Shown: positions 6,439 to 54,034, counted from the stretch's first letter. The stretch is DNA of 64,000 bases from Candidatus Micrarchaeota archaeon (GCA_040753215.1 JBFMEZ010000025.1:5528-69527), one strand, 5' to 3'. Made by a program: numbers and translations. The notes: generated by a model from the letters alone, not told the origin.

Positions 6439-6516
6439 CAGGCCAAAAGCACCACGGAACCTGATTTTGCAGACGTAGCAACTGGAAACCCGAAACTGGG
6501 AACGAAATCAATGATT

Positions 6517-6588
6517 TGGGCCCGAAGGGAATCGAACCCCTGGTCTCTACCATGTCAGGGTAGCGTCTTGCCATTCGACTACGGGCCC
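6517..6588 (-). tRNA. tRNA-Val (anticodon GAC)
   Basis: Reverse complement reads GGGCCCGTAGTCGAATGGCAAGACGCTACC-CTGACAT-GGTAGAGACCAGGGGTTCGATTCCCTTCGGGCCC-A. It has a 7-bp acceptor stem, the GG D-loop, anticodon loop CUGACAU with U33 and A37, and a GGTTCGATTCC T-loop. CCA is not encoded. Confidence 0.9.
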
Positions 6589-6799
6589 AGAACAATTGCC
6601 GGTTTAGAGTTTTCAGTTTCCGGATAACGTGTTGACAAATAAAGGCGCATAAGTCCTTAAAAAGGATAGCACACCCCCGTGCGTGCGTAAGGAGTGCGAG
6701 CGAAGAGTTGCGAAGCGAAGTGGAAAGGGGGTATGATTACCCTAAAGAGAGGGGGGAACGCCTTCCCCCTTCCTCTTGGTGCCATTCGACTACGGGCCC
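6569..6799. repeat. 20-bp direct repeat (TGCCATTCGACTACGGGCCC) at 6569-6588 and 6780-6799, which is nt 1-20 of tRNA-Val; the copies bound a 192-bp segment
   Basis: Exact 20/20 identity. The second copy lies just outside the tRNA, 192 bp from the gene's 5' end. This is the pattern of an att-site duplication or a mini-element insertion. Confidence 0.7.
6727..6784 (+). repeat. conserved ~58-nt element, copy 1 (hairpin GGGGGAACGCCTTCCCCC plus CTAAAGAGA TATA-like box), ending in TGCCA
   Basis: About 85% identical to 33219-33274. Both copies sit in divergent intergenic regions directly beside tRNA sequence. Confidence 0.6.
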
Positions 6800-6830
6800 T
6801 CGGCGGGATATGATAGTAATTGCGGAGTAA

Positions 6831-7628
6831 ATGATTATAAAGAATCGTTCTGAAAGGAAGCGCATGAAAAAATCATCGCGCGTTCCCGCATCGGCAAGGC
6901 GGGCAGAACCGAAACCGGAAACCGGAAGCTGGAAACTGGAAGCCGGCGGCCGCACGCCCACCGGGATATCCGGGCTGGATGATTTGCTTGAGGGAGGGTT
7001 CCCGGAAGGGAGCTTCGTCCTTCTCTCGGGAACGTGCGGCACGGGCAAGTCCATCTTCGGGATGCAGTTCGTTTGCCGGGGCGCGGAGAGGGGCGAGCCG
7101 GGAGTGTTCCTCTCCATGGAGGAGGAGCCGGAGAGGATCATTAAGGACATGTCCGGCTTCGACTGGGATATAAGGAAGCAGGTGGACGAGGGGCGGCTGG
7201 CGATAGCCAAGCCGGAGATTTACGAGAGCGACGCGATAAAGAGGATGATAGTGGATTCCGTGGAAAGGACCGGCGCGAGGAGGCTGGTGATAGACTCCTT
7301 CACGCTGCTCAGCTCCTACCTGGAGAATCCCTTCGACATAAGGAAGATGATTTTCGACATAAGCAGGGAGATAAAGAAGCTGAACTGCACCACCCTCTCC
7401 ATCTCGGACATGCCGGAGGGCGGCGCATCCTACTCCATAAACGGGTTCGAGGAGTTCGTCTCCGACGGCGTGGTCGTGCTGTCCCTTGCGCAGGCGGGCA
7501 CGACCGGGGCGTACACGCGCGCGCTGCTCGTGAGGAAGATGAGGGCGACGTCGCATTCGCTGAAGATGGTTCCGTTCAAGATTGAGAGGGAGGGAATAAA
7601 GCTCTACCCCGAGGCGGAGCTTTTCTGA
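6831..7628 (+). CDS. KaiC-like / RadA-RecA superfamily ATPase, second paralogue
   Basis: GISGLDDLLEGGFPEGS...SGTCGTGKS Walker A and an LVIDSFT Walker-B-like block. The N-terminal ~40 aa contain a heptamer-repeat stretch (KPETGSWKLEAGG), so the true start may lie downstream or use a non-ATG codon. Confidence 0.75.
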   Translation: MIIKNRSERKRMKKSSRVPASARRAEPKPETGSWKLEAGGRTPTGISGLDDLLEGGFPEGSFVLLSGTCGTGKSIFGMQFVCRGAERGEPGVFLSMEEEPERIIKDMSGFDWDIRKQVDEGRLAIAKPEIYESDAIKRMIVDSVERTGARRLVIDSFTLLSSYLENPFDIRKMIFDISREIKKLNCTTLSISDMPEGGASYSINGFEEFVSDGVVVLSLAQAGTTGAYTRALLVRKMRATSHSLKMVPFKIEREGIKLYPEAELF

Positions 7629-7634
7629 CGGCGG

Positions 7635-8048
7635 TCAGCCGGCCGGCCTTGGCTGTGCGTGCAGCATCCGGAGAATCTCCTCCCGGGATATCTCCTGCCT
7701 GTGCCTCTGCTCCGCCTGGAGCTTCCTGAAAAAGTAGAAATACTCGTAAAGGCTGCCCTCGTCCTCCGCCCATATAACCCTATGGCTGTCCATCACCTCC
7801 CATTTGAGATAGAGGGGGAGCTCTTCGAAGCAGTAAACGTCGTAGCCCTTTCCGTATACATCCACATTGTGGTATACTCTTTTCATAATGCCCGCGCTTT
7901 TCTTCCCTGGAGCGACTATGCAGATGTCTACATCCCTCGCTCCGGCTTCGCCCTTTGCTGCGGAGCCGAAGAGGAGGACCGCAAGCGCGTCCTTTTTCAG
8001 GAATGAGAACTCTTTCCTGAGCGCCCGCATCATTTTTTCCCCAGCCAT
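7635..8048 (-). CDS. minimal nucleotidyltransferase (MNT/MntA-type antitoxin of a HEPN-MNT pair)
   Basis: LFGSAAKGEAGARDVDI is the GS-x9-13-DxD Pol-beta nucleotidyltransferase motif. The protein is small (137 aa) and overlaps the HEPN gene by 19 nt. Confidence 0.75.
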   Translation of the reverse strand: MAGEKMMRALRKEFSFLKKDALAVLLFGSAAKGEAGARDVDICIVAPGKKSAGIMKRVYHNVDVYGKGYDVYCFEELPLYLKWEVMDSHRVIWAEDEGSLYEYFYFFRKLQAEQRHRQEISREEILRMLHAQPRPAG

Positions 8049-8443
8049 TCCCCCACCGCCTGCGCGAGCTCTTCGAAGAACGGCAGCAGCCCGAGCATTG
8101 ATTCGTATGCCGTGTTCTCATCAAGCCCGTTGTATTCGTGGACGACCCTGTTCCTGAGGCCGTTCGCCTCCTTGAGCGCCTTCCCCAGCCTTCCGCTTAT
8201 GACTTTCTTCCCGAGTGCGGAGTCTATGTTTGAGTAGTCGTCCTTCGGGGGCGTGTTCTCATCGCGGAGAACCATCGCAAGGATGTCCATCGCCGCCTCG
8301 ACCATCTCCTGAAAAGCCTTGTAGCAGGCGAGGGCGGTTTTTTCATCCCCGAGGAAGTCGCCCTCCCATTCCTCTATCTCCGCCTTCCTTTTCCGCAGCA
8401 GGTCAAGCTTGTCCTTGTACCTCTTCAGCCTGGCGGCCTCCAT
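8030..8443 (-). CDS. HEPN-domain protein (DUF86/HepT-like toxin)
   Basis: The R-x4-H motif RNRVVHEY near the C-terminus and a small all-alpha protein, immediately upstream of and overlapping the MNT gene. Confidence 0.75.
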   Translation of the reverse strand: MEAARLKRYKDKLDLLRKRKAEIEEWEGDFLGDEKTALACYKAFQEMVEAAMDILAMVLRDENTPPKDDYSNIDSALGKKVISGRLGKALKEANGLRNRVVHEYNGLDENTAYESMLGLLPFFEELAQAVGEWLGKK

Positions 8444-12478: not shown

Positions 12479-13015
12479 TTACTGCACAACCCCGTTAAGC
12501 GTGCCCGCCTCTATATATGAGAAGCCGGTTACACGGTCCGTGTAATTTATCCTCATTACGACCTGGAAGGACGTGCCTGCGCCGGTCGTGTAGTTGAACG
12601 CGCCCACCGGGATGGTGTCGGATATCTCGCCCACGCCGAGCGAGATGTTGAGGTCTCCGGAGTCTATCATGTCGCCCGCGTATGTAGCGTTTATGGAATT
12701 CACGGAGATTGGTACTCCCACCTGGTTCTGGAGCTTCACCGAAAGGTCGCCGCCCGAATTAAGGATGAAGGCGGGGACCGCGACCTGCGTGAAAGCGACC
12801 GGCCTGTTGCCGATGAAGGAGCCGATGTCGAATATTCCCAGCACGAAAAGGGCAGCGGCTACAAGAAGAACAATGAGGAGCGCCCATCCGTATGTAATGA
12901 GGAAATCCAGGGCGGCTTGGCCCCTTCGGTTTCGGGTTTCCTGTTTTCCGTTTCCCGCTTCCGGAAACCGGGGGCCGGCAACTGGAAACCGGCTTGCAGC
13001 CTGGCCTTTTTTCAT
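12479..13015 (-). CDS. archaeal type IV pilin-like protein (class III signal peptide, DUF361-type), paralogue 1
   Basis: MKKGQAAS...RRG|QAALDFLITYGWALLIVLLVAAALFVLGIF is a prepilin-peptidase site (K/R-G|Q-x-x-x-D/E) followed by a hydrophobic helix. The leader carries an in-frame heptamer-repeat insertion (RFPVAGPRFPEAGNGKQETRN). The ATG at 13015 is preferred over the tracked 13171. Confidence 0.7.
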   Translation of the reverse strand: MKKGQAASRFPVAGPRFPEAGNGKQETRNRRGQAALDFLITYGWALLIVLLVAAALFVLGIFDIGSFIGNRPVAFTQVAVPAFILNSGGDLSVKLQNQVGVPISVNSINATYAGDMIDSGDLNISLGVGEISDTIPVGAFNYTTGAGTSFQVVMRINYTDRVTGFSYIEAGTLNGVVQ

Positions 13016-13234
13016 TTTTTTCACCGGGTGAATAATGATAATACGGATTATAAAAGTTAGCACGAGCCGTAGGAGCATCCCTGTATCTGGTCGTACGCGC
13101 ACACGTAGCCGGTGTCGGGCCCGCAGTGGTCGTAGGTGCATGGGTCGCCGTCGTCGCAGGATGGCGGGCACACGCAGCCGAGCAGCAGGAGCGCGAGGAA
13201 GAGCAGCAGGAATGCGGCGCGTATTTTCTCCATC

Positions 13235-13723
13235 TCAGCTCACCTCCCCGAAAACCGTTCCCTTCGAAGCATAAGCAAACCCGGTTGCGCGGTCTTCGTA
13301 CCCTATCTTTATCGCGATTGCATAGCGCATGTCCGGGCTGATGCCGGTGAGGTTTCCCACCGGGATTATGTTCGATACTTCGCCAATGCCCAGCCGTGTA
13401 TTTGTGCACCAGGCGGTTATGGTCTGGTTCTGGTACGTTGCATTTATGTAGTTTATCCTTATCGGCCTTCCCGCATCGTTCCTGAGCTTCAGGAGAAGCA
13501 GGCCAGAGGGCGAAACCCTGAAAGCCGGGACTGAGACCTCGCTAAACCCTGCCGCCCTGTTGCCTATGAACGAGCCGACGTCAAGTATGCCCAGGGAAAA
13601 GAGGGATGCGCCTATGAGGATGAGCAGCACAACCGCCCATCCGTAGGTCATCAGGAAATCAAGCGCCTGGCCTTTATGGTTTCCTGTTTCCGGTCTTCGG
13701 TTTCCGGAATGCATTACGGACAT
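13235..13723 (-). CDS. archaeal type IV pilin-like protein, paralogue 2
   Basis: MSVMHSGNRRPETGNHKG|QALDFLMTYGWAVVLLILIGASLF is a class III signal. Leader codons are made of GGAAACC-type repeats. The mature domain is similar to paralogues 1 and 3 (IGNRxxGF, SVPAF, INATY). Confidence 0.7.
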   Translation of the reverse strand: MSVMHSGNRRPETGNHKGQALDFLMTYGWAVVLLILIGASLFSLGILDVGSFIGNRAAGFSEVSVPAFRVSPSGLLLLKLRNDAGRPIRINYINATYQNQTITAWCTNTRLGIGEVSNIIPVGNLTGISPDMRYAIAIKIGYEDRATGFAYASKGTVFGEVS

Positions 13724-13765
13724 TGAGAAGATAAAGGAAGAAAAGAAAAATAAAGGAATTGCTTG

Positions 13766-14272
13766 CTATTCCACGATTCCGTTCAGCGTCCCGGTCTCCA
13801 CGTAAGTGAAGCTCGTTGTGCGGTCGGTGTAGCCAACCCTCATAGTAACCACGTAGGAGTCGCCGCTGCTCAGCCCGGTGAACGCGCCCACGTTTATGGT
13901 GCTGGAGGTCCGCCCGATGCCAAGGTTCGTGGAAGGCGCGACGCTCACCGTCTGGTTGGTGTAGGTCGCGTTTATGGAATCTATCCTTATCGGGTTCCCG
14001 ACCTGGTTCTGGAGCTGCAGCGTTAGCGTCCCGTTTGACGCGATTTTGAACGCCGGGACCGCCACCTGCGTGAAACCCACTGCCCTGTTCCCTACGAAGG
14101 AGCCGATGTCGAATATCCCGAGCACGAAGAGTGCCGCTGCAATCAGGACAATCAGCAGTATGGCCCATCCGTAGGTCATCAGGAAATCCAAAGCCGCCTG
14201 GCCCTTCCTGTTTCCTGTTTCGGGTTTCCGGTTCCCGGAAACCTCTCTCTCTTGGCTTTTTCCCGAATACAT
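13766..14272 (-). CDS. archaeal type IV pilin-like protein, paralogue 3
   Basis: MYSGKSQEREVSGNRKPETGNRKG|QAALDFLMTYGWAILLIVLIAAALFVLGIF. Same family as the two downstream genes. N-x-S/T sequons are present. Confidence 0.7.
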   Translation of the reverse strand: MYSGKSQEREVSGNRKPETGNRKGQAALDFLMTYGWAILLIVLIAAALFVLGIFDIGSFVGNRAVGFTQVAVPAFKIASNGTLTLQLQNQVGNPIRIDSINATYTNQTVSVAPSTNLGIGRTSSTINVGAFTGLSSGDSYVVTMRVGYTDRTTSFTYVETGTLNGIVE

Positions 14273-14354
14273 ACTGGTATCACCTTGGGGTGAATAGGTT
14301 AAAAAGTTTATAAAGCTTGCTCCAGAAGCCCTGTTCGGTGGGGTATTGAAGGTC

Positions 14355-14490
14355 TTGGGGTCTTGAATGGTCTACGGGTCCCGGGGGTCTTGAATGGTCT
14401 ACGGGTCCCGGGGGTCTTGAATGGTCTACGGGTCCCGGGGGTCTTGAATGGTCTACGGGTCCCGGGGGTCTTGAATGGTCTACGGGAGCT
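14355..14490. repeat. tandem repeat, 27-bp unit (TCTTGAATGGTCTACGGGTCCCGGGGG) x5
   Basis: Five head-to-tail copies at 14361, 14388, 14415, 14442 and 14469 with no spacers, so not CRISPR-like. Located in the divergent region between the pilin paralogues and the adhesin gene. Confidence 0.85.
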
Positions 14491-14531
14491 GAAGACTATG
14501 CAAGACACGGAGACTACCGGTTGGTGATGAG

Positions 14532-14909: not shown

Positions 14910-14962
14910 GAAGAAAAATGCAGAAACAAGACGTGAAGGCACCCAAGACCAGAAGACCACCG

Positions 14963-15150
14963 CAAGACCTGGAGACCACGGTTGTGCGGTCTCGGAGTCC
15001 TGGAGTCTCGAGAGTCTTGAGAAACGTGGGGACTACGCAAGACCCCCAAGACCTGGAGACCACGGTTGTGCGGTCTCGGAGTCCTGGAGTCTCGAGAGTC
15101 TTGAGAAACGTGGGGACTACGCAAGACCCCCAAGACCTGGAGACAGCCTC
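14963..15150. repeat. tandem repeat, 84-bp unit x2.2, directly upstream of and in frame with the adhesin start
   Basis: Copies at 14963-15046, 15047-15130 and a partial 15131-15150. Translates as PQDLETTVVRSRSPGVSRVLRNVGTTQD. Shares GCAAGAC/GGTCT motifs with the 27-bp array and with the 5' end of the pilin gene at 18230. Confidence 0.85.
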
Positions 15151-17682: not shown

Positions 17683-18243
17683 GTGCTGGGCACTGGAAAC
17701 CGGAAACGGGAAACTGGAAACAGGAAAGGTTACGCGACGGGCGTGGACTTCGTGCTCTCAATACTCATATTCTCGATAGTGCTTGCATACTCCATTGGCT
17801 CGTATTACTACTATCTTGGGGAATACCGGGCGGTGGAAGCGAGGAAGAACCTTGAGGTTTCGGCGCTTGCGCTTACGGACACGCTGCTCAAAAGCCCGGG
17901 GATTCCGGGAGACTGGGAGGCGGCCGCGGATTGGGAGGAATGGATGGAGGAAGAGGAGGAGGAAGAGGAGTGGATTCCCACGGGCCTGGAATCCATAGGG
18001 CTTGTGCGGAGGGCGAATGTGCTCGAGCCGGCGAAGGTCTTCGCGCTGGATATGATGGACTATAATTATTCCAGGGAAGTGCTTGGGATTGGGGCGGATT
18101 ATTTCCTCTACATAACAACCGTGGGCGGGATTACAGTGATGGAGAAGGGGGTGCGGATGGAGAACGCGAGCGTCATCTCGGTGAGGAGGATGGCGCTGTA
18201 CAACGGGACGTACGCATGGGTGACTTTGGATGTTTATGGATAA
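17683..18243 (+). CDS. pilin-like protein (class III-type signal), paralogue 5
   Basis: GTG start preceded by GGAGGT 7 nt upstream. MLGTGNRKRETGNRKG|YATGVDFVLSILIFSIVLAY. The leader is repeat-encoded and an acidic EEEEEEE stretch follows. Confidence 0.55.
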   Translation: MLGTGNRKRETGNRKGYATGVDFVLSILIFSIVLAYSIGSYYYYLGEYRAVEARKNLEVSALALTDTLLKSPGIPGDWEAAADWEEWMEEEEEEEEWIPTGLESIGLVRRANVLEPAKVFALDMMDYNYSREVLGIGADYFLYITTVGGITVMEKGVRMENASVISVRRMALYNGTYAWVTLDVYG

Positions 18244-19652: not shown

Positions 19653-20303
19653 ATGAACGGGGAAATGAAGGTAAGGGACATCATGCGGAAGGACTTCATA
19701 TACCTTGATGAGGAGGAGAAGCTGGACGCGATAATAGAGAAGTTCGCAAAATACGGCATCCACGAGGCGCCGGTGCTGAGCAGGGGGGAGCTGAGGGGGC
19801 TCGTGTCCGACAGGGAGATTGCGGATGCCCTCCTGAAAAAGAGGGCGCTTCCTTTCCTGAGGGGCAGGGAGCTGCTTTCCGCGGAAAAGGCGAAAAACAT
19901 AAGGGCACGGGACATACTGAACAGGCATTTCCTCACGCTCGAGCCAGGCATGGAGCTCGTGGATGCGATAATAGACATGGCGCGCAGGGAGACGAACGTT
20001 ATCCCGGTAGTGGAGGGCGGGAGGGTGCTGGGGATAGTGACCGGGAAGGACGTGGTGGGCTACGTGGCGAAGAAATTCATAAGCCACGAGGCGGAGGAGA
20101 AGGGCGGCGAGGGGCTGCAATCCGCGGTGGATGCGGTGCTTGCGCTCGTGAAGGAGAGGAAGAAGGTCTCTGCTGAGGAGGCCTCGAAAAAGCTCGGGAT
20201 TTCCAGGGAAAGGGTTGAGGCGATAGCGAAATCCCTCGCAAAGCACGGGCTCGTCGAGGTGAGGTATACGATAGGCGGAAGGATGGAAGTGAGGGGGATC
20301 TGA
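19653..20303 (+). CDS. CBS-domain pair protein with C-terminal winged-helix-like domain
   Basis: Two CBS repeats (VRDIMRKDFIYLDEE..., ARDILNRHFLTLEPG... with GIVTGKDV) and a C-terminal KLGISRERVEAIAKSLAKHGLV HTH-like segment. Confidence 0.65.
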   Translation: MNGEMKVRDIMRKDFIYLDEEEKLDAIIEKFAKYGIHEAPVLSRGELRGLVSDREIADALLKKRALPFLRGRELLSAEKAKNIRARDILNRHFLTLEPGMELVDAIIDMARRETNVIPVVEGGRVLGIVTGKDVVGYVAKKFISHEAEEKGGEGLQSAVDAVLALVKERKKVSAEEASKKLGISRERVEAIAKSLAKHGLVEVRYTIGGRMEVRGI

Positions 20304-21775
20304 TGGCCCAGCTGGAGGAATATGCGGTAAGGAGCGAGGAGATGGAGGGGAAGGTCACGGTGGCGCGCGGGCCGGAGGATTACGTGCCCAGGTACAGCCT
20401 GCAGGTGCAGAAGCTCTCCGGGCCTACGGCCGCATACCTGGAAGACGTCAAGAACGAGCTGCTCAAGAGGATTACAATAGGGACGAGGGAGCTTACCGAG
20501 CTCAGCGCGCTCGAGGCGCTGAAGGCGGAGATAAAGAGGAATGCGGTGAAGCTGCTCAAAAGCGGCCTTCCGGGGGAGAGCGAGGATGATTACGCCTTCT
20601 TCGCATCGAAGATAGTGCAGGACATGGTGGGGCTGGGGGACCTGGAGTTCCTCATAGCTGACGACTGGCTGGAAGAGATATGCGTAAACAGGGCAGGGGA
20701 GCCGGTCTGGGTGTACCACAGGAAATACGGATGGCTGAAGAGCAACGTCATAATACCGGACGAGGCGCAGGTGAGGAACTACGCGGCCGCGATAGGGAGG
20801 AAGGTGGGCAGGCAGATAACGATACAGGACCCGCTGCTCGATGCGAACATGGTCACGGGGGACAGGGTGAACGCGACGCTCTCGCCGGTGTCCATGCTGG
20901 GGAACACCATCACAATAAGGAAATTCGCGAGGAAGCCATGGACGATTACGGACATGCTGAAGCTGAACACCCTTTCCTACGAATCCGCGGCCTTCCTCTG
21001 GCTGTGCATGGAATACGAAATCAACATCCTGGTGGGGGGCGGGACCGGAAGCGGGAAGACCTCCTTCCTCAACGTGCTCACCGCGTTCATGCCCGCGAGC
21101 CACAGGCTGGTCAGCATAGAGCAGACGCACGAGATAAAGCCGCCGAAGCACCTCCAGTGGGTGCCGATGGTGGTGAGGGAGCCGACGAGCGAGGGGAAGG
21201 GGGAGGTCTCCATGCTGGACCTCATGATAAATGCGCTCAGGATGAGGCCGGACCGCATAATAGTGGGCGAGGTGAGGAGGGCGGACGAGGCGGAGGTGCT
21301 CTTCGAGGCGATGCACACCGGCCACAGCGTGTATTCCACGCTGCACGCGGAGACCGCGAGGGAGACCCTGAAGAGGCTCACGCACCCCCCGATAGACATC
21401 CCTCCGGTTGTGCTCGGCTCGCTGCAGCTGATAGCGGTCATGTACAGGGACAGGAGGGCGAACGTGAGGAGGTTGTTTGAGGTGGTGGAGCTCCTGCCGA
21501 GCGAGGAGAGGGAGCCGATGAGCAGGACGCTCTTCAGGTGGAAGCCGCTGAAGGACCAGGTGTTCAGGGAGGAGGCGAGCGTGCGCGTGCTGGAGACGCT
21601 GAAAACCTTCACAAGGATGGACGAGAAGGAGATAGGGAGGAGCATAGCGGAGAAGGAGGAGATGCTCAGGTGGATGGTGAAGAAGGACGTAAACGCGGTG
21701 GACGCTGTCGGGAAGCTCGTGGCGGATTACTACATGGAGCCGGAAGCCGTGCTTGCAAAGGTGAGGAAGAAATAG
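20303..21775 (+). CDS. type IV pilus / type II secretion family assembly ATPase (archaeal PilB/FlaI/ArlI-like, VirB11 superfamily)
   Basis: ILVGGGTGSGKTSFLN Walker A, RIIVGEVR Walker-B region and a His box (MHTGHSVYSTLHA). 490 aa with the N-terminal domain typical of FlaI-like ATPases. TGATG overlap with the CBS gene. Confidence 0.85.
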   Translation: MAQLEEYAVRSEEMEGKVTVARGPEDYVPRYSLQVQKLSGPTAAYLEDVKNELLKRITIGTRELTELSALEALKAEIKRNAVKLLKSGLPGESEDDYAFFASKIVQDMVGLGDLEFLIADDWLEEICVNRAGEPVWVYHRKYGWLKSNVIIPDEAQVRNYAAAIGRKVGRQITIQDPLLDANMVTGDRVNATLSPVSMLGNTITIRKFARKPWTITDMLKLNTLSYESAAFLWLCMEYEINILVGGGTGSGKTSFLNVLTAFMPASHRLVSIEQTHEIKPPKHLQWVPMVVREPTSEGKGEVSMLDLMINALRMRPDRIIVGEVRRADEAEVLFEAMHTGHSVYSTLHAETARETLKRLTHPPIDIPPVVLGSLQLIAVMYRDRRANVRRLFEVVELLPSEEREPMSRTLFRWKPLKDQVFREEASVRVLETLKTFTRMDEKEIGRSIAEKEEMLRWMVKKDVNAVDAVGKLVADYYMEPEAVLAKVRKK

Positions 21776-21782
21776 GTGTCGT

Positions 21783-22667
21783 ATGGGCGCGAGGATTCCG
21801 TTCTTTGTCCCGGAAAAGGCCTCCTACCCGCTGGGGAGGCTGTTCGCGGGGGTTGTGCAGCCCTTCACGAGGCTGATGCCCGAGCTCGGGGAGAGCCTTC
21901 CGGTGCTGGGGATAGAGCACGACGAGGCGGAGTATACCGGGGCTGCGCTGGTGAACGCGCTGTTCGCGGGGGTTGTGCTCGGCGCCGCATTCTACATGGT
22001 CGCGGTGAGGGTGGGCGCCGCGGAGAGCATACGCGTGCACGGGAGCCTGATCACGGGGCTTGCAATCTTCCTCATGAGCCTCGCATACCTCCTCGCGTTC
22101 CCGGTGTGGGTGGTGAGGAGGAGGGCGGACGAGATAGAGGAGAACCTCCTGTATGCGGTGAGGCACATCATGGTGCAGACGACCGCGGGGGTGCCCTTCT
22201 TCGAGGCGCTCTCCTCGGCCGCGTCCGGGTACGGCCCGGTTTCGGCGGAATTCAGGAACATCGTCAACCAGGTGAACGGCGGGAAGGACCTGGCGGATGC
22301 GCTTGAGGAGAGCGCGGCGAAGAGCGCCTCCAAATATTACAAGAGGATACTGTGGCACGTGGCGAATTCAACGAGGTCCGGATATAACATAGCGGACATA
22401 ATGAAGGAGCTGGTGACCTACCTCGCATACGAGCAGCAGATAAGGGTGAAGAAATTCGGCTCCGAGCTCAACGTGATGTCCCTGTTCTACCTCTCCACCT
22501 GCGTGATACTGCCCACGATGGGGCTGATACTGGCCGTGATACTTTCCTCTTTCGCGGTCGTTTCGCTCAGCCCCACGCTGCTCGGGGTTTTTGTATTCGT
22601 GATAGCCATATTCAACCTGATGTTCCTGGGGATGGTGCAGTCGAGGAGGCCGAGGGGGCTCATATGA
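21783..22667 (+). CDS. TadC/FlaJ-like pilus assembly membrane protein (T2SS-F domain), first of two
   Basis: Polytopic membrane protein with a cytoplasmic helical domain, directly after the ATPase. This is the PilC/TadC/FlaJ platform architecture. Confidence 0.65.
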   Translation: MGARIPFFVPEKASYPLGRLFAGVVQPFTRLMPELGESLPVLGIEHDEAEYTGAALVNALFAGVVLGAAFYMVAVRVGAAESIRVHGSLITGLAIFLMSLAYLLAFPVWVVRRRADEIEENLLYAVRHIMVQTTAGVPFFEALSSAASGYGPVSAEFRNIVNQVNGGKDLADALEESAAKSASKYYKRILWHVANSTRSGYNIADIMKELVTYLAYEQQIRVKKFGSELNVMSLFYLSTCVILPTMGLILAVILSSFAVVSLSPTLLGVFVFVIAIFNLMFLGMVQSRRPRGLI

Positions 22668-23620
22668 ATCCTGTTAAAAGCTATGTGAATTACATACGGC
22701 AACTCCTGGCGTACTGCGACATCTCCGCATCGCCCAACAAGTTCGCCCTCTTCACGCTATGGTTCCCCTTCCTGACCGCGCTCATAATCTCGGTTTTCTT
22801 CCTCAGGGAGCAGGGGCACATCCTCTTCGCGGTGGGCGCCGCCGCATTCGTGGCGGCGGAGGCTGGGATATTCGGGTTCCTCATCCTCGCAAAGAACAGG
22901 AGGGCCGAGGCGGCGGAGGAGGCGATGCCGGACTTCCTGCTGCTCGCTTCAAACAACATAAGGAGCGGGATGACCCCGGACAGGGCGCTGATAGCATCGG
23001 CGAAGGACGAGTTCGGGGTGCTGAGCAGGGAAGTCATGCGGGTGATGCGGGAGACGGTCTCCGGAAGGCCTTTTGAGGAGATGCTGATGAAGGTCACCGA
23101 GAGGATAGATTCGCGGACTATTGAGAACACCGTGAGGCTCGTTGTCGAGGGGATGTATTCGGGCGGGGAGCTCCCCTCTCTCCTTGAAAGGACCTCCTAC
23201 GACATAAGGACGATGAAGACGCTCAGGAAGGACGTGCAGGCGCTCATAGTCACGTACCAGATGTTCATAGCGTCCGCCGTGATGTTCGGGGCGCCTATCC
23301 TCTTCGCGGTGGCAACGCACATAGTTGAGATAATGATCGCGCTGAGGGCAAAGATAACAATAAGCGGGCTTGCCGTGGCGGGGGGGCTGATACCGCTCGG
23401 CAGCGCGGCCGGAGTGAGCGCCGACACGCTCATGCTGTTTGCGGTGAGCGCGATATTCGTGAACTCCCTCTTCGCATCGGTTGCGATAGGGCTCATTTCA
23501 AAGGGAAGGAAGGTGGAGGGGCTGGGCTATTTCCCGCTCGTGTTCCTGGTCTCGCTGGCGTTCTTCTTCCTTGTGAGGCTCGTGCTCAAGAGCGCCCTCG
23601 GCGGCGTCCTGCCTGTATAA
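22664..23620 (+). CDS. TadC/FlaJ-like pilus assembly membrane protein (T2SS-F domain), second of two
   Basis: ATGA overlap with the previous gene and a similar TM/cytoplasmic pattern. Together the two genes resemble a split FlaJ. Confidence 0.65.
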   Translation: MNPVKSYVNYIRQLLAYCDISASPNKFALFTLWFPFLTALIISVFFLREQGHILFAVGAAAFVAAEAGIFGFLILAKNRRAEAAEEAMPDFLLLASNNIRSGMTPDRALIASAKDEFGVLSREVMRVMRETVSGRPFEEMLMKVTERIDSRTIENTVRLVVEGMYSGGELPSLLERTSYDIRTMKTLRKDVQALIVTYQMFIASAVMFGAPILFAVATHIVEIMIALRAKITISGLAVAGGLIPLGSAAGVSADTLMLFAVSAIFVNSLFASVAIGLISKGRKVEGLGYFPLVFLVSLAFFFLVRLVLKSALGGVLPV

Positions 23621-33132: not shown

Positions 33133-33218
33133 ACATACACCCGCGGAGATACCGAAGAATACATAAATAAAGATTTCTATGGCAAATAGCCTAAGCGTAT
33201 AGCCCTTCAATCATAAAT

Positions 33219-33274
33219 GGGGGGTTATGATTACGCTAAAGAGAAGGGGGAACTCCCCCTTCTTCTTGCTGCCA
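33219..33274 (+). repeat. conserved ~58-nt element, copy 2, ending in GCCA, which forms the first four nt of the downstream tRNA
   Basis: GGGGGGTTATGATTACGCTAAAGAGAAGGGGGAACTCCCCCTTCTTCTTGCTGCCA. CTAAAGAGAA lies at -35 to -26 relative to the tRNA 5' end, like a TATA box. The hairpin is AAGGGGG-AAC-TCCCCCTT. Confidence 0.6.
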
Positions 33275-33414
33275 CGGTAGCTCAGCTGGGAGAGCACTCG
33301 AGGTCTTCTGAGATTAATTTCATTTGACCGGTGAAGCTGAAGTTCCGTTCCCGCAATGGGGCGGATATTCTCCCGGAAACCGAGGGGTCGCTGGTTCAAA
33401 TCCGGCCCGTGGCA
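33271..33414 (+). tRNA. intron-containing tRNA (144 nt precursor, intron about 70 nt); isotype not resolved
   Basis: 5' GCCACGG-TA-GCTCAGCTGGGAGAGC (acceptor and D arm) and 3' ...CCGAG-GGGTC-GCTGGTTCAAATCCGGC-CCGTGGC-A (anticodon 3' strand, variable loop, T arm, acceptor) are canonical. About 70 nt in between cannot be folded into an anticodon loop without a non-canonical splice. Confidence 0.7.
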
Positions 33415-34223: not shown

Positions 34224-37200
34224 CTAGTGATGGAGCTTCCTTGCGCCCCTCGGGACGGGCGGAGGGCCCTGCACAAGCCCCCTGAATCTCTTAGGGAGCG
34301 GCAGGCCGGGACTCGGCGCCGGCCTCGGCGCATTCATGGAAGCGGCAATCCGCCCCCTAAGTTCGGGCCCGAAGTATCCTGCGTAGTATGCGGGCAGCTC
34401 CCTCCTGTCCCTCGCCATCATGCGCTCGTCTGCCAGCCTCTTGTCCACCGCATCCCTCATGAGCTCGCCTATTTCCGCAGCCGTGAACATGCCGGATGCT
34501 ATGAGCTGCGACGCCGCAGACGCCTCGCCGCGGTACACCACTGCCTTTACCGCCGCCCATTTTAGCAGCAGCTTCTGCCATTCTGCGGGCGGGCTGCCGG
34601 AGAACGCCGCGGACATCGGCACACCGACGTCCTTTCCGCACTGCACCGCGCATAGAAGCGCGGAGAATGGCGAATCCAGCTCTGCCGCGAAATTCAGCGC
34701 CTCGTATTTCTCCTCAAGGTCGCCCTGCCCCCCCCGGAGGGCCATTGGCTCGAGCAGCTTTTCGCCTATTGCCGGGCTGCCTGCTGCCACCCCGAGCACT
34801 TCGGAAATGACCTCGGGGAGCATCCTGGAATCGCCAATTATGGCTGCGAAATGCTCTGCCGCCGGCCCGCCTGCGGCCGCCATGAGCTGCGCCGCGGTTT
34901 TTCTTGAGGCGATTTCAAGGTCGAGCGGGAGAAGGTCCTGCGGATGAACCCTCAGGCGCACCATGCGCTCCAGCTCGTCAAGGGGCACGTACGGGCCAGC
35001 CGCCTTCAGCGCGTCTTCCGCGCACGTGCTGACCATCCCGTTCCTGTGCCTGAGCAGCCCTGCGAGGAGCCTCGTGTTCTCCCGGAACTCCGGGAGCACG
35101 CTGAGCTCCTTCGGCGTTTCCCTTCCGCTCTGCAGCACCCTGGTAAACAGCTCCGCGGCCTGCACCGCCTTGTTCTCGTCCCCGGAGCGCAGCATCGCGC
35201 CTATCTGCTCCTGTGCGCCCCTTCCCATCAGCCTCAGGACGTTGTACACCCTTGCGGCCAGCTTTTCCCCGCCTTCCGTGCTGAGGACGGCGGCGACGCT
35301 GTCGAGGAGGTTTATGTTCCTCATCTCGGAAAGGACCATCGCGACAACGCCCTCGGAAAGCTCCTTCATGCCTATCGCATTCAGCAGGCATTCCCTGGCC
35401 TTCTTTTCTGTCGCCTCGCTCTGCCTGTGGCCTTTCTTCTTTCTGGCGTAGCCGGCGAGCTCGCCTATGGTCACGAGCGCGTTCCTGCGGTATTCCGGCG
35501 GGTAGCGCGAAAAATCGACGGAAAGGACGATGTCCGAAAGCTGGCCAACCGCGAGGTCGCCGTTCCTCACCAGGATTGTGCGTGCCTCCCTGAGGCGGTC
35601 CGCATTGTCAGCGGCCTCCACATCCCCGAAGAGGTGCGCCTTCACGCACGCCTTTATCAGGTCCGCGCCGCAGTCCTTCTGCTCGCGGAAAATCTTGAAA
35701 GCCACGAGCCCGAGGTCTGAAAGCTCGCCCCTGTCGAAGGCTGCGCGCATCAGGCAGGGGCGGACCTCCCCCTTTCCGTAGGCAGCCGAGAGGGCTTCCT
35801 CCACCCTGCGGCCGGTCCTCACGGCCTCGTCCCCGAGGCTCTTCCCGGAAACGAGCCCGGAGAGGAGCCTGTATGAAGCGTCGGAATTTATGCGTGCGAG
35901 CAATACCGCGATTGCCGCGGCTTCCTTCGGGGCGATTCCCTCCTTCTCCCTGTCAGCCAGGAACCGCCCGGCATGCTTCGTTGCCCCTTCCGCGAAAACC
36001 GGCAGGGATGCGAAATCCTGCATAGCGGCAACATCTGCGGCATCCATGTCCTTTATGAGGGGAAGCATGTGGCCTGCGAGGGCGGCGCACCTGCCGCTCT
36101 CCAGCAGCCCGCCGAAGGCCGATGCGAGGCCGGAAAGCGCGAGCGCCTCCTTCGGGGTGAGTGCCCCTTCCCGGGATTTCCTTTCCGCGTATTCGAGGAG
36201 GATTGCTTCCCCGTGGGCCGCGTCCAGCTTGATTGCGAGGTCCTGCAGCTTCTCGAGCTGGGCAGGGTTCATTCTAACTGCCTCCGGGAGCGCATGCTTC
36301 AGGAACTCCACGCCCTCCTTTGCGCCTATGTCTTCAACGACTATGGAAAGGAGGTGGGCACCGTCTGCGCCGAGGCCCTCTGCGGCGGCTTCCGCATACC
36401 TCAGTATTACGGGGACCGCGCCCTTTCCTATCTTCCTGGCGAAGCGCGCGGCTGCGACAAGCTGCTCGTCGTCCATTCCCTTCAGTACCGGCAGGGAGCT
36501 GGCGAGGATGCGGTTTGCGTCATCATCCGCAAAGCCGGCTTCCATCGCAAGGGAAATCATGAAGCGGCATTCTTCCGCGGTCAGCGTGCCTTTTGAGGAT
36601 TCCGCCTCCGCGTAAGAGGCGAGGTGCGCGACAGGATTGCTGCCCTTTTCCGCCATCTCCATCACCAGCTGGCTGATGAGCGGGTCGTGCACGCGGCCGA
36701 GCGTCCTGCTTTCGGAAAGCGCGACTGCGAGCATTCCTGCGGGTTCCATTGCGGCGAGGAGGGATGCCACGCTTTCCCTGAGCTCCGGCTGCTGCTGGTA
36801 GGCGTTGAGGAGCAGCGGGACCGAGGTTCCTGCGGCCTGCCCGCCAACGAGCGCCGCGGCGCTCTTCCTTGCCGCGAAGGGGGCGTTGTAATCGCCCAGG
36901 ACTGCGCACACGCGGCCGAAATCGGCTTCGGCCTCCATGATTTCCATCGCCCTGGAGTTCCCGGAAGCCGCCTCCAGCAGCCTTGAATATGCGTAGTGCA
37001 CGTCGGCATCATCGCCCTTGGCCGAGAGGAACAGCTCGGCGGCCCTTTCAACCGCAACCTCAGGGCTGCCGGGGTCCAGAAGCGTATCCTCAAGGTGGCG
37101 CAGGGCATCGAAGCTGCCCTCGTGCAGCGCCTGCATTATGGTGTGGGAGGCCTCGGTGTCGCCCTCCGCAATCGCGGAGGCGAGGAGCGGGTATGCGTCC

Positions 37201-40200
37201 CTGTGCCCAGGGGCAAGCTCCGCAAGAAGGCCCGCGGCTCCGCGCCTGACATTAACATCTTCGTTGTGAGCCAGCAGCTCCCCGAGGAGGGGCCCTGCAC
37301 GGCTGAAATCCATCGCAAGGAAGTACCTCCGGGTGTCCAGGCCTTTTCCGCCCAAAAGTATGAGCCGGCTGGCCGCACCCTCTGCGACCTGCTGGGAATC
37401 GTGGGTGAGCATCGGGGCGAGCACATCGCACGCCTCTTCGGTGCCCATCTGTCCCAGCACGGATATCGTTCTGAGGTTTTCCCCGTCCTCCCTGCCTGCG
37501 TATATGGACGGCAGGAGGCGGAGGCCGCCGGAGTGTATGCTTGAAACCGCGAGCTTCCTGACTTCGGCGTTCCCGCCGGCTGTTGCGGAACAGAGCACGG
37601 GGTAAACATCTTCAGGGTAGCGCACCGCGAATTCCGAGAGCAGGGTGGCGGCTGAGACGCCGGCTGCTTCGCTGAGCTCGCTGCCATCGCTGTCCAGCAC
37701 CGCTTCCTTCAGGAGGGCGAGCGAGCGGTTGAAATCCAGGTTCCTGAAATATTTGTGGGTGTCAGTGCCATCTGCTCCGTGCGCGGCGAGCAGCACACGG
37801 GCCGCCTCTGCGGAAACTGCGGGCTCCGTGTCGAGCAGCACGGGCGAGAGCGCGGCAAGCGCCTCCTGCGTCCCTATCTCCCTCAGGACCGAGACCGCGT
37901 TTAGCTTGCCCTCCCTTGTGCATGAGCCGAATTCCTCGGACACGGCCCGTATCACTGCGCCGTCCCCCCGGGATATGAGCATGGAGCATACGCCCATCGC
38001 GACATCCGGGTAGTCCAGGGCTCCGGCGAGGCCGTTGAGCGCCGCCGGGTCGTTTATGTCCGCCAGCCTCTGGAGGGCTGCGAGGCGGGCATCGGAGTCC
38101 TTCGCCCTGTGGAGCAACTTCACGAGCCTTGCTACCTCCCTGCCGGATTCCCTGGAAGATGCGACCAGCTCCGGAGCGGGAGGCGAGTAAACTGTAGGCC
38201 CCGCGTTTTCTGGCCCGGATTTTCCCACAAGCCCCTGCGGAGGCGGGTATAGGGATGTCGGCCTCGCTTCCAGAGGTATTCCATCTGCATGGGCCTCTGC
38301 TGTTTGCGGCACCGGAGCTGGCGGCTCTGGTTCGGCCGCAGGAACATGCGAGGTTGCGCCCGGCGTTTCCGGAGCCGGCTGGCCTTCAGCGGCAGGTGCA
38401 GCAGGTTCCTCGCCCAAAACATCCTCTTCCCTCACCGGAGCAGGCGGCTGGGACGGGGTTTCTGGCAAACCAAACCCCCGCCCTCCCGGTCCCACTTCGG
38501 CTCTGGAGGTTTGGTTTGGTCTCCCGTTTCCTGTTTCCGGTTTCGCGTCCGCTGTTGGCTGCGGAGCGCCTGCTGCCTGCGCTTCTGCCTTTTCTCCTGC
38601 AAGCGCTGCGGCTATCTCTTCCGGTGTGGGGGCACGTCTCTGAAACGTCCTCCATTTATCCGGAGGCAGCAGTTTTCCATCGGGGCCGAGCAGCGCGGGG
38701 CCCACATCCGGCGCAGGTGCGGGGCCTTTCATTGTCGGGTGCGCGGAAGGAACATCAGCAACCGGCTGGGGAGTGGAAACTGTAGAGTGGGAACCGGGAA
38801 CCGGAAGCGGGGAACTGGTTGCTGGCTGCGCTGCGGGCATCCCTACTGCGGTCCCTCCCCTCGCAGCGTCTGCCATCTCTTGTGAACCTGAAACGGGCGG
38901 CTTTCCTGCCGTAAGGTCAATCACCCGCTGGAACTCGCCGCTTTCGGAAGCATCCGGCGCATGTGGCACAATTTCCAAGTGCAGCTTCTTTGCACCCGGT
39001 TTCCCGCTTTCTGTTTCGGAACTGGAAACCGGAGACAGGAAACCGGAAACTGCGCTGCCACCTGCGGGCGGGACTGCGTGACCGGCAACCGTTCTGCCTC
39101 TCAGCGCCTCTGCCATTGCGAGGCTCTCGGGGGCAGCGGAGGAAACCGGCCCGGAACCGGAAACTGGAAGCCGGGAACCGTGAACCGGCTCTGTTGGTGC
39201 AGCTGCGGTGGCGGCTCTTGGCGCTTCCGCTGGGGGAGTCGGCACTTCGGGAGTTTCCGGCAACCGGGAACCGGAAACTGGAAGCTGGGGTGCCGGGTAA
39301 GGAGGAGGAAGCGGCTTAAGGAGGCCTGAATCGCCTTCTGAGCCGGCTGCGATTGTGGCAGCGAGGCCTATGGGCGCGGCGATTTCGACCGCATGCACGC
39401 GCGGGCCGGAGCCGTTTGCAGGAGGGGCTGCTGGAACCGTGGGCCTTGCTTCACTCTCCTTTGCGGCCTCAAGCTCGCGCTCGACAACCTTAAGGAATTC
39501 CAGCACTGCCGGCCCGGAGGGAAGCCCTATCCTTTCGGAATTTATCTTGTCCAATGCCGCGTGCATCAGTTCCGGCGCAATGGAACCGTTGCCGCAGAGA
39601 AGGTAGATGTGGAGCTTTGCAGGGTAGGGGTGGCCCGCATCTATGCACAGCCCGGAGAAGAATGCCGTCTCCTCATCAATGCCGCTGAACTGCTTCCTCT
39701 CGGAAAGGAGGATTGCGAGTGCCTTCTTTCCCACATCCTCGGGAATGAAGCCCCTCTGCACCCTGTTGTCTATCTGCCTTTTCGTCCTTATTTCGGCCCT
39801 GCAGACCGTGAAGAGCTTGTCCGCCTCTTCGGGGGTTTTCACCGACGCCTCGCCTGCGCGAACACGCCTAAGGGCTTCCTCCGCGGCCATGGCAGCGTAG
39901 TTGTCGGCCGGCGGCTTCCATTCCTTTCCGACTGCGCGCATGAGTGCGGCGAGCCGCTCGGGCATCGCGAGAACTGCGTTCCAGCCCTCGAGTTCTGCCT
40001 CCTTTTCGGCAAGGGCTGCGGGAGCGGGTTCCTTCTTTCTCATGCCCCCAACAGACTTGCCGAGGGTTTCAACAAAACCTTCCGCGGTCCTGCGCAGCTT
40101 CTCGCCCTGGAAAATATTGAGCAGGCCGGAGCGGCCCACGCGCACTCCGCCCATGGTTCTCGGGCCTTCCGCGAGCATAGTATAAGCGTTATCTTCGGGC

Positions 40201-50800: not shown

Positions 50801-50906
50801 TCCCGTCTCCGGAGGATGAGATGAGGTATTCGGGCCTGGGCTCCGGCGGGTGCACCAGGAAAAGGCGCTCTGCAAGCTGCGGGGTGTAGATTTTCTGCAC
50901 TTTCAT
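47892..50906 (-). CDS. HerA/FtsK/VirB4-superfamily ATPase (DUF87-like) interrupted by a large intein
   Basis: Walker A AIVGITGSGK|S is interrupted after GK. Walker B is LFVVVDEAW and the sensor is ALIVASQNPTD. The inserted segment carries two LAGLIDADG motifs (LARLCGYIVSEGT, LKGYFEGDG) and ends ...GGLFVHN|S (intein blocks F and G with +1 Ser). Confidence 0.8.
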   Translation of the reverse strand: MKVQKIYTPQLAERLFLVHPPEPRPEYLISSSGDGIYVGKTRWLNVPVFWNYQKLINPHIAIVGITGSGKSIDRNEPVIIRQNGKVRIAKIGELIDGLIQNSGSAETIDDVEGVSSPGIEIYSFDGNLKAKWVPVNFAGRKKSPSTLYSFKTASGREIRTTGDHNILVLRDGGISVAKGSEVRTGDYIPTPRELSFEGEEFAVDTLGLLKHDDVHVVGAAGVIADNCERLHKWLPINKKYDKYLRFYKAGRAIPLAYFSQIMELLGLDARIIPGLKLRSPSGSALLLPKIENEKAMALARLCGYIVSEGTIAKHFINVHTTEPELLDDMKSCFGIVGFQFFPIPHGLRTSASAVVRLLKRIGLEGNAGSKKIPAPIMASKLEYLAEFLKGYFEGDGGVEQKCISATTKSKELASQLCYMLLRFGIIARVHPSKKRATNSKHKGGLYYRVTVSGKENIRKYTENIGFVTQRKNHNLVLLLQRCGKGHSNVDVIPNIEGVVASVMKKYSLPRTQMTYSIQTGLRRPTKKYLASLLEQVSVQATGDKEVEFLNLLAQSDLFWDPIVEKAEEPSGDEFVYDLSVDSEVFMAGFGGLFVHNSYLTKTFLTRASLVWNSNALILDWVGEYDKWVKQAGGKVIHLGEEHLNLLDLAGLTPSERMKQIMSALEILLDLHNFPSERYDIEEALEETYDGAKNPTLTDVVKRLEEKKKRGAARLLKRFTTQGSDFFAKPSTLALEKLTDSGLVCIDLHSLPTEEMRSLAGLTILQFLKERMRREQMKEEKGVRLFVVVDEAWKIASDERSDVITIVREGRKYNFALIVASQNPTDMHKTILSNVGTMFILRLVLREFKDYVRQSLNYSDYIDGEISKFGVGDAALNMIFAKRAGGSHTFLLNKIDGEEPLFVYALEADGMSVEKEREQFCNMLYELGLTDEQIGLVKNEFERNDGVMDATEFVSILEKFGYSPSSVMGFLRQLEVGEKDIVEIFSLARRRKASKGMVDLSLREE
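49119..50696 (-). mobile_element. intein with LAGLIDADG homing-endonuclease domain (about 526 aa) inside the ATPase P-loop
   Basis: Boundaries inferred from extein continuity: GITGSGK-[S71...N596]-SYLTKTF restores a Walker A plus helix. Terminal HN with +1 Ser. The first residue Ser is unusual but known. Confidence 0.7.
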
Positions 50907-53686: not shown

Positions 53687-54034
53687 GAAGGGAATGTGAA
53701 CCTCCACGGCTCGGTCACACCTTGTAGTCGCCTGCGTGGCGGCGATAGGTCTGCCTAGCCATTGGGTGCGGCTACAAGGTGTGAGGAAGCCTCGGCATTT
53801 ATGCCGGGGAGGAGAGCCGAGGCTTCCTCTAAAGGCAGCAGGAATACAGTTGCCCCTTCATCTATGAAGAAGCCACGGCCTTTGGACCGTGGAGGTTCAG
53901 TAACCATGGTTACATGCCAGTTTTCAGCTACCTGTTTTCAGTTTTCAGTAACGGATGCCGGAAACAGGAAACCGACAACGGGAAACCGCAGGAAGAAAAC
54001 AAGAGTTATATATCTTGCTCAATAAAAATGCGCC

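Follow-up and report, generated by a model that had tools for sequence, protein, structure and literature searches.

Short structured repeats beside tRNA genes in Micrarchaeota: a candidate family of non-autonomous mobile elements

In a 64,000-nt stretch of a Candidatus Micrarchaeota genome (GCA_040753215.1, JBFMEZ010000025.1:5528-69527; hereafter, the window), a tRNA-Val(GAC) gene lies close to a second, isolated copy of its own first 20 nt. This partial copy adjoins the 3' end of a 95-nt repeat belonging to a family, here called E, which we analyzed in the window and in 8-kb loci retrieved from genome and metagenome contigs (L-numbers, e.g., L002 and L074). As far as can be judged from sequence, the E family comprises strand-specific, structured, non-coding repeats of 45-135 nt found only in metagenome-assembled genomes (MAGs) and metagenomes of Micrarchaeota-type DPANN archaea. 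The reading that we favor, with a probability of roughly 0.55, is that E is a non-autonomous mobile repeat with junction duplication that has been inserted repeatedly beside tRNA genes in Micrarchaeota. The genomes of these archaea are ~1 Mb in size and thought to be poor in repetitive DNA. The family is apparently new to description: a full-text literature search found no account of it, and in comparisons with Rfam only tRNAs reached the gathering threshold, the best E scores being ≤18 bits against thresholds of 32-100.

The copy beside tRNA-Val, E1 (6685-6779, + strand), is a full-length "type a" copy that matches positions 1-95 of an nhmmer profile (E = 1.6e-24). The other copy in the window, E2 (33219-33268, + strand; profile positions 41-94, E = 1.9e-9), is a short "type b" copy that retains two hairpins and the core between them, and it ends 2 nt before an intron-containing tRNA. 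An earlier interpretation made from the window alone (the sequence-only reading) had described this pair as a 58-nt element (6727-6784) recurring at about 85% identity at 33219-33274, immediately upstream of the window's second tRNA. The recurrence and its position held up, and the element is a genuine conserved repeat tied to tRNA loci, in a multi-copy family with 20/60 copies at tRNA ends. The identity, however, is 83% (50/60 columns, with two gaps), and the last 4 nt of the 58-mer (GCCA) are not part of the element but the first bases of the second tRNA, coincidentally also those of the 20-mer. Since E1 matches the profile from position 1 to 95, the tRNA-Val locus holds a unit of 95 nt, not 58.

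The search of related genomes and other tRNA genes that the sequence-only reading had called for yielded many copies. The profile, built from full-length copies, gave 117 matches in the retrieved loci, with only E1 and E2 in the window. An invariant 18-nt core, ATGATTACNCTAAAGAGA, likewise occurs just twice in the window; scanned against one genome per species, it returned 91 loci, 47 of which are true copies, the core being preceded by a G-run and followed by a G/C hairpin. These copies all belong to Micrarchaeota or closely related archaeal MAGs, and the remaining core matches, in bacteria and other archaea, were taken as chance because the flanking G-run is missing. A stricter pattern added 36 further copies in metagenome contigs. 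Copy number can be considerable: one ~1-Mb genome holds at least 18 copies, and ~13 core matches plus variants lie on a single 1.03-Mb contig (JBAZFC010000001). No true copy was present in the viral, phage, and plasmid collections IMG/VR, INPHARED, and PLSDB.

The copies share a common anatomy. Full-length type a copies begin GCGTAAGGAGTRCG..GAAGTGG. In all copies, hairpin H1 (GGGUA-UGAU-UACCC) arises by pairing between a G-run and the core's ACCC, and is followed by a linker, UAAAG, and by hairpin H2, AGAGAGGGGGG-loop-CCCCCUUC(C)CUCU, which contains a bulged C. In E1, the 5' module (GCGTAAGGAG...) precedes H1 at 6728-6743 (GGGGUA-UGAU-UACCCU), the core at 6733-6750, H2 at ~6747-6777, and the terminal CTCTTGG. 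The 3' end of the family is constant (...CCTCTTGG, finishing CTCTTGG); the 5' end is ragged, with starts at profile positions 1, 13-16, 21, 29-41, and later, and unrelated filler often precedes it. Some copies carry 40-90 nt of additional hairpins within the H2 loop, and diverged subfamilies keep the same architecture with a different sequence, e.g., GGGGGTCAGAATGACACCTAAAAATGGGGGGAGTGCCCTCCCCGCGTTTTTGG.

The G/C-rich hairpin H2 is kept by compensatory changes. Across 13 subfamily representatives it is paired at 93.7%, with 20 double-change cells compared to 8.0 ± 2.5 in shuffled controls (0/500), and slid controls were all clearly lower. The predicted fold of E1 reaches -36 kcal/mol on the + strand versus -25.6 on the - strand, and G-U pairs also favor the + strand. 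Several other identities for E were considered and set aside. A mirror-repeat or triplex of two G-runs was dropped, the upstream G-run being paired with the core ACCC as H1. A gene cassette (open reading frame [ORF] plus E, in the manner of an integron attC site) was rejected: an ORF ends in the 5' module in just 2/29 type a copies. Compared with C/D-box small RNAs (sRNAs), which have a C box RUGAUGA, a D box CUGA, and 12-nt guides, E has AUGAUUA and no D box. A match to the C/D-box sRNA sR11 at 6806-6854 (+ strand), overlapping the TATA box of the neighboring KaiC-like gene, scored 14.9 bits against a threshold of 39, with degenerate boxes that are not conserved in relatives, and is probably due to chance.

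Comparison of orthologous sites showed that, at the level of sequence, the E family behaves as inserted DNA. At six such sites E is present in some species and absent in others. The spacer between tRNA-Val and the KaiC-like gene is occupied in the window, L074, and L113 and empty in L142 and L143, so that the empty site which the sequence-only reading had proposed to look for does exist. The E2 site is occupied in the window by E2 together with a 27-nt filler inserted along with it (33192-33218, + strand), both of which are absent from the orthologous empty site in L018. At tRNA-Thr(GGU), the 3' end is occupied in L045 and L012 and empty in L009, and the 5' end is occupied in L009 and empty in L012 and L045. 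The 5' region of the NFACT gene carries E in L002 and is empty in the window, and the 3' end of tRNA-Val carries it in L113 and is empty in the window and L141. Because these six sites are polymorphic for its presence, the genes concerned work without E.

We then examined the tRNA-Val locus in detail. The intact tRNA-Val(GAC) gene occupies 6517-6588 on the - strand (Rfam RF00005, 69.5 bits; also called by ARAGORN). The exact duplicate of its nucleotides 1-20 as a direct repeat is real, with the coordinates of the sequence-only reading shifted by one base: the 20-mer GGGCCCGTAGTCGAATGGCA occurs exactly twice in the window, at 6569-6588 within the gene and at 6780-6799 adjoining the E1 3' end, both on the - strand. 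Two matches were found in 0/100 shuffled sequences. The copies lie 211 bp apart start to start, with 191 bp between them, and the repeat ends at 20 nt without any extension.

The two 20-mers had been thought to bound a 192-bp segment, and on this point the comparison with relatives gave a different picture. The DNA directly upstream of the gene (6589-6684) is not inserted but ancestral, being orthologous to the tRNA-Val upstream DNA of relatives (z = 26 for L074, 16 for L138, 12 for L141, 10 for L113, and 9 for L142), and three of these five relatives lack E. It follows that the 20-mers do not delimit a 192-bp element. This ancestral region contains a heptamer tract (6598-6623) and a TATA-like sequence, CCTTAAAAAGG, at 6655-6665, and its motif GGAAGTCCTTAAAAA is found also before tRNA-Val(CAC) genes. 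We further observed the motif GCGGAAGTCCTTAAAAA upstream of both tRNA-Val(GAC) and tRNA-Val(CAC) (L003 at 4179, L108 at 1793, L015, L141, L138, and the window at 6651), which appears to be a promoter block common to the two tRNA-Val paralogs.

On the far side of the duplicate, the 22 nt tcggcgggatatgatagtaatt (6800-6821) match nothing else, either in the window or across 146 loci, and are not present in L141, L113, or L142. They are followed by the ancestral promoter region of the KaiC-like gene (6822-6863, + strand), which is orthologous to L141 and L113 (z = 4.8 and 4.9) and has a TATA box, TTATAAAG (6836-6843), lying 21 nt ahead of the start codon ATG (6864); the product carries a KaiC domain (Pfam PF06745, 1.8e-61) and is 100% identical to an NCBI protein of a Candidatus Micrarchaeota archaeon. 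Relative to L141, the extra block of the window thus consists of E1 (6685-6779), the 20-mer (6780-6799), and the 22 nt (6800-6821). In L113, just "ta" stands in place of the last two. The 5' junction of E1 is common to the window, L074, and L113, which suggests that the E1 insertion is old. The duplicate at 6780-6799, for its part, has a base specific to the lineage of the window (GGCA, compared with GGTA in relatives) and is therefore either young or has been kept in step with the gene.

The best reading of the 20-bp duplicate is that of a junction repeat or scar at the edge of E1, rather than an integrase attachment site of a 192-bp element. Three histories may be envisaged. The original duplication may have been very long, reaching from tRNA position 20 as far as the TATA box, and its non-tRNA part has since diverged; the motif order of the two flanks is alike, without statistical support. 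The duplicate may instead be a later templated repair patch at the E1 3' junction, or it may have arisen by recombination between two allele types. The 191-bp segment itself was also tried as a long target duplication and rejected, the flanks having no significant similarity beyond the 20-mer.

Junction repeats at the E 3' end are not confined to this locus. Among 58 distinct copies, 10 are followed, at 1-5 nt from the 3' end, by the start of a direct repeat that exceeds all 200 control windows, and six more are borderline (p ≤ 0.04). The repeats are 9 to ~35 nt long, many of them imperfect, and the left copy lies 0-250 nt upstream of E with unrelated filler between. Examples include L007 (31 nt), L118 (34 nt), and L124 (32 nt). 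The clearest case is L113, the tRNA-Val/KaiC ortholog, in which a 13-17-nt TATA-region repeat, GCGGAAGTCCTTA[A/T]AAA, stands on both sides of E; in L142 and L143 the same TATA region is present once and serves both tRNA-Val and a leaderless KaiC gene.

The tRNA-Thr loci show an arrangement in which the intact tRNA is followed by E and then by an exact partial copy of the tRNA end starting from the E 3' end. In L045 and L012 this copy is 18 nt of the tRNA-Thr 3' end, 18/18 identical within each locus, and the two species differ from one another at three positions; L047 has a diverged 23-nt partial tRNA-Thr copy. The fillers at tRNA-Thr(GGU) are 46 nt in L045 and 242 nt in L012 and are unrelated, with no significant similarity. 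The 242-nt filler of L012 (- strand), between tRNA-Thr(GGU) and E, contains an 81-codon open frame, the last ~66 codons of which, from an ATG, encode a Cys-rich peptide (MDIDLATNPGNISWKQDKCPWNV...), and the stop is the TAA of the E 5' module.

To assess the association with tRNA genes, we used 60 distinct canonical copies with enough flanking sequence. The E 3' end lies within 6 nt of a tRNA gene end in 20 of these, 14 copies stopping ≤6 nt upstream of a co-oriented tRNA's 5' end and 6 adjoining the 3' end of an opposite-strand tRNA. No tRNA adjoined the E 5' end among the copies examined. Elsewhere, copies sit in tight gaps that open right behind a stop codon and close at a start codon. Where both neighboring genes run the same way, 23 copies are co-oriented with them and 6 antisense (p = 0.002). 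Canonical E was found in 20/54 distinct tRNA upstream regions, and variants in several more, always 1-4 nt from +1, in a sample biased to E-bearing loci because these were retrieved through E. According to the sequence-only reading, the 20-mer and the element in a fixed arrangement upstream of most tRNA genes would have pointed to a generic promoter or leader; the element does hold a fixed position 1-4 nt upstream of many tRNAs, but the 20-mer does not. The idea that short copies specifically precede tRNAs was dropped, the share lying before tRNAs being 12/43 for short copies versus 2/17 for loop-expanded ones (81-135 nt; p = 0.31).

The tRNA preceded by E2 (33271-33414, + strand; Rfam 44.1 bits) has a 71-80-nt insertion in the anticodon arm. 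It is missed by ARAGORN at default settings and, with introns allowed, is called as an implausible Asn-ATT (Ser-GGA in the L018 ortholog). The conserved GCTGAAGT/CTGAAG in the insert suggests a tRNA-Phe(GAA) with two introns, at 31/32 and 37/38; folding did not settle the anticodon.

How might such a distribution have arisen? If the favored reading is right, E would be non-autonomous and moved in trans by an enzyme, and insertion, or repair of the 3' junction, would duplicate or copy neighboring target DNA. Insertions in or near the end of an essential gene would persist only where the copy restores the gene, and partial tRNA copies would stand beside intact tRNAs (tRNA-Val nucleotides 1-20 here, the tRNA-Thr 3' end elsewhere) because only such gene-restoring insertions survive. 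Copies lying between the host TATA box and the tRNA +1, as do E2 and the copy in L009, would as a consequence enter the transcript as 5' leaders of pre-tRNAs, to be removed by RNase P, and the sense-oriented copies would be those retained. Among the explanations offered by the sequence-only reading, "a small non-autonomous tRNA-targeting element" and a "cassette copied between tRNA loci" come closest to this.

Several observations weigh against mobility of this kind. The length of the flanking repeat varies from 0 to ~35 nt, and classical transposases do not give variable-length repeats. A simple target-site duplication misfits E1, because the left copy is 96 nt away with ancestral DNA between, and E1 would need the very long diverged duplication, the templated repair patch, or the allele recombination described above. 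The 3' 61 nt of E are identical between orthologous copies of two species whose tRNA-Thr genes differ, which looks more like host function or horizontal spread than neutral selfish DNA. Moreover, no enzyme was found: the 30 ORFs of the window include no integrase, transposase, or reverse transcriptase, and no recurrent gene stands beside E across the loci with 117 copies, so that the integrase which the sequence-only reading had suggested searching for did not appear. IS200/IS605 elements are reported from >65% of Micrarchaeota genomes (PMC13343696), which is a lead and not a link to E.

Part of this evidence would fit a cassette that mainly serves the host in cis, as "punctuation" (promoter, 5' leader, or terminator hairpin) for tRNAs and closely packed genes, and that is spread by duplication or gene conversion, the 20-mer being an incidental repair scar. 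The promoter cassette suggested by the sequence-only reading overlaps with this view. We regard this as unlikely, although it survives best among the alternatives. Consistent with it are the endings 1-4 nt before the tRNA +1, the sense-strand bias, and the position of the TAAAGAGA box 32-40 nt before +1, compared by eye to 30-37 nt for the TATA boxes of E-less tRNAs. H2 is followed by a U/C-rich tail (UUUUU in one subfamily), and a G/C hairpin with a U-rich tail resembles bacterial intrinsic terminators; in Archaea, oligo-U tracts serve in termination. Conservation of the 3' 61 nt of E also exceeds that of the neighboring tRNA, and the site upstream of tRNA-Thr(CGU) is occupied by different subfamilies in five genomes. 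The six polymorphic sites, however, argue against a required host function, CCCTAAAGAG is poor as a TATA box, and the loop-expanded copies (81-135 nt) break any fixed spacing yet show no significant depletion in front of tRNAs. In six cases the copy runs toward the 3' end of a convergent tRNA, and E1 itself lies between two native TATA boxes, directly before no gene start. A role as host cassette may well coexist with mobility.

Somewhat less probable is that the copies are integrase remnants, in which E would be the conserved arm beside the attP core of small tRNA-targeting plasmids or viruses whose interiors have decayed, the tRNA copies being duplications of the attachment site. The exact 18-20-nt duplicates of tRNA ends beside E would be expected from such a system. 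That one and the same tRNA-Thr(GGU) position is occupied in two species, with fillers (46 and 242 nt) that are unrelated, could reflect site-specific targeting more than once, the larger filler holds the 81-codon open frame, and E is identical across species, as a horizontally moving element would be. But many of the flanking repeats are not tRNA sequence, and so many different cores are beyond one integrase. It is also improbable that many separate decays would each reach 50-300 bp and yet spare E. The DNA between the repeats at the tRNA-Val site is ancestral, no integrase stands in the window or beside any copy, and the viral and plasmid collections (IMG/VR, INPHARED, and PLSDB) are devoid of E.

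We give still less weight to a SINE-like (short interspersed nuclear element) spread through RNA, in which the pre-tRNA leader, from the transcription start to the RNase P site, is reverse-transcribed and inserted elsewhere. The constant 3' end with ragged 5' starts, the filler only at the 5' junction, and the variable length of the flanking repeats would all agree with it, and the + strand is the structured strand. The short copy of L009 would be a whole leader, because it fills the exact gap from the native promoter to the tRNA +1. Conversely, no reverse transcriptase was seen within the 64-kb window and the 8-kb loci, the copy in L002 lacks the 3' arm, which is the wrong type of truncation, and E1 has extra sequence on its 3' side. 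To our knowledge, no SINE-like system has been described in Archaea. In its boldest form, to which we accord an equally low probability, E would be an RNA-level mobile element, a pre-tRNA leader delimited by the host promoter at its 5' end and by RNase P at its 3' end, copied into DNA and inserted at transcription starts and ends, chiefly those of tRNA genes; the family would then be one of SINE-like retroposons in DPANN archaea. A milder version would see in E a mobile cassette of promoter/terminator "punctuation" by which tRNA expression is rewired in very small genomes.

An assembly artifact or chimera at a repeated element is very improbable: contigs do break off within E or at its end (L074, L018, L021, L087, and L090), and in L117 the upstream flank comes from one locus and the downstream flank from another, with E at the join (compare L132 and L135), but the tRNA-Val/KaiC synteny is the same in five relatives, both junctions run into unique sequence that continues to the orthologous KaiC promoter, and E with a partial tRNA recurs in independent assemblies, the MAG locus L045 and the Joint Genome Institute (JGI) contig L115 being identical. 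As contigs end at E and L117 is mixed, E does break and chimerize MAG assemblies, and in practice it also yields partial tRNA copies that mimic integrase attachment sites. Should E be mobile, it would represent a novel type of small element in Archaea, inserting in an unusual way that favors tRNA ends and gives duplications of variable length; should it be a host element, it would be a leader, promoter, or terminator module, hitherto undescribed, that serves tRNA expression and processing in DPANN archaea.

The remainder of the window has several other features. The genes flanking the tRNA-Val segment encode the KaiC-like ATPase, a HepT/MNT pair, UbiA, and products without assignment. The nucleotidyltransferase/HepT-like pair (MNT-HEPN toxin-antitoxin type; 7635-8443, - strand) lies directly downstream of the KaiC-like gene, and its 137-aa neighbor is syntenic in relatives. 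Tracts of a 7-nt unit (NGGAAAC/GTTTCCN) occur in both orientations throughout the window, mainly at gene ends (29-104, 6480-6503, 6598-6623, 6899-6946, 12925-12990, 17684-17727, 38752-39291, 53914-53999, and others); the tract upstream of tRNA-Val is common to L074 and L142 and absent in L141 and L113. Three adjacent paralogous small ORFs (12479-14272), two of them with pilin-like N-termini (...ALDFLMTYGWA...), share repeats of 149-190 nt at 70-76% identity and lie upstream of genes for a type IV secretion/pilus ATPase and two membrane-platform proteins (20303-23620). A 770-aa ORF that has no Pfam match shows, at its start and shortly inside it, a 27-nt tandem repeat of ~5-6 units (14330-14491) and an 84-nt tandem duplication, 99% identical (14960-15127). 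On the - strand, a single 2758-aa ORF (34224-42500) contains long low-complexity Pro/Ala/Ser stretches, and a HerA/AAA_10-type ATPase gene (47892-50906) is split by an intein with a LAGLIDADG homing endonuclease domain.

Finally, we compared E with known systems. [quoted passage not shown] MITEs have terminal inverted repeats at both ends, and E does not, its hairpins being internal; one subfamily has a 3' arm able to pair with a sub-terminal stretch on the 5' side, with 35 nt of conserved sequence outside. A MITE would also be expected to have a target-site duplication of fixed length, unlike the 0 to ~35 nt of E, and no related autonomous insertion sequence (IS) with matching ends was found beside the 117 copies or in the window. 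Repetitive extragenic palindromic (REP) sequences, with their composite forms (bacterial interspersed mosaic elements [BIMEs] and REP doublets forming hairpins [REPINs]) and the REP-associated tyrosine transposase (RAYT), which is IS200/IS605-like, resemble E in having G/C-rich imperfect hairpins at gene ends that are transcribed with their neighbors. E differs in having two or three hairpins with an invariant 18-nt core, in occurring as single copies and not as inverted pairs, and in its flanking duplications, which REPs do not have; none of the copies has a RAYT or TnpA gene next to it. A TnpB/IS200-605 right end with a flanking "guide" was rejected, there being no recurrent upstream ORF and the flanks matching tRNAs both sense and antisense.

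Archaeal tRNA-targeting integrative elements of the SSV and pTN3 types leave an intact tRNA and a nearby partial tRNA copy. E loci share the intact tRNA with an 18-20-nt partial copy, the direct repeat being the end of the tRNA gene, but they have neither an integrase nor a kb-scale insert, and their many cores include non-tRNA sequence. With respect to promoters, Matus-Garcia et al. are said to have described, in 2012, putative mobile promoters of prokaryotes in which the same short upstream sequence precedes unrelated genes. E too precedes unrelated genes but is found also at gene 3' ends and at those of convergent tRNAs. An archaeal promoter with a transcription factor B recognition element (BRE) and TATA box has an A/T-rich TATA ~25-30 nt before the start. 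The TAAAGAGA of E, 32-40 nt before the tRNA +1, is placed much as native TATA boxes are (30-37 nt), but it is a weak TATA and the loop-expanded copies break the spacing. Eukaryotes have retroelements that target tRNA genes, and structured-RNA retroposons, among them SINEs, Ty3, and the Dictyostelium tRNA gene-targeted retroelements (TRE). E resembles these in its insertion a few nt from tRNA ends, its structured RNA, its constant 3' end with 5' truncation, and its variable target duplications; it differs in its prokaryotic host and in having no known reverse transcriptase partner and no A-rich or simple-repeat tail, so that the likeness is one of pattern only. Last, known small non-autonomous intergenic repeats often have flanking direct repeats, as E does, and it is the constant 3' end, the ragged 5' end, and the strong strand bias that set E apart from them.

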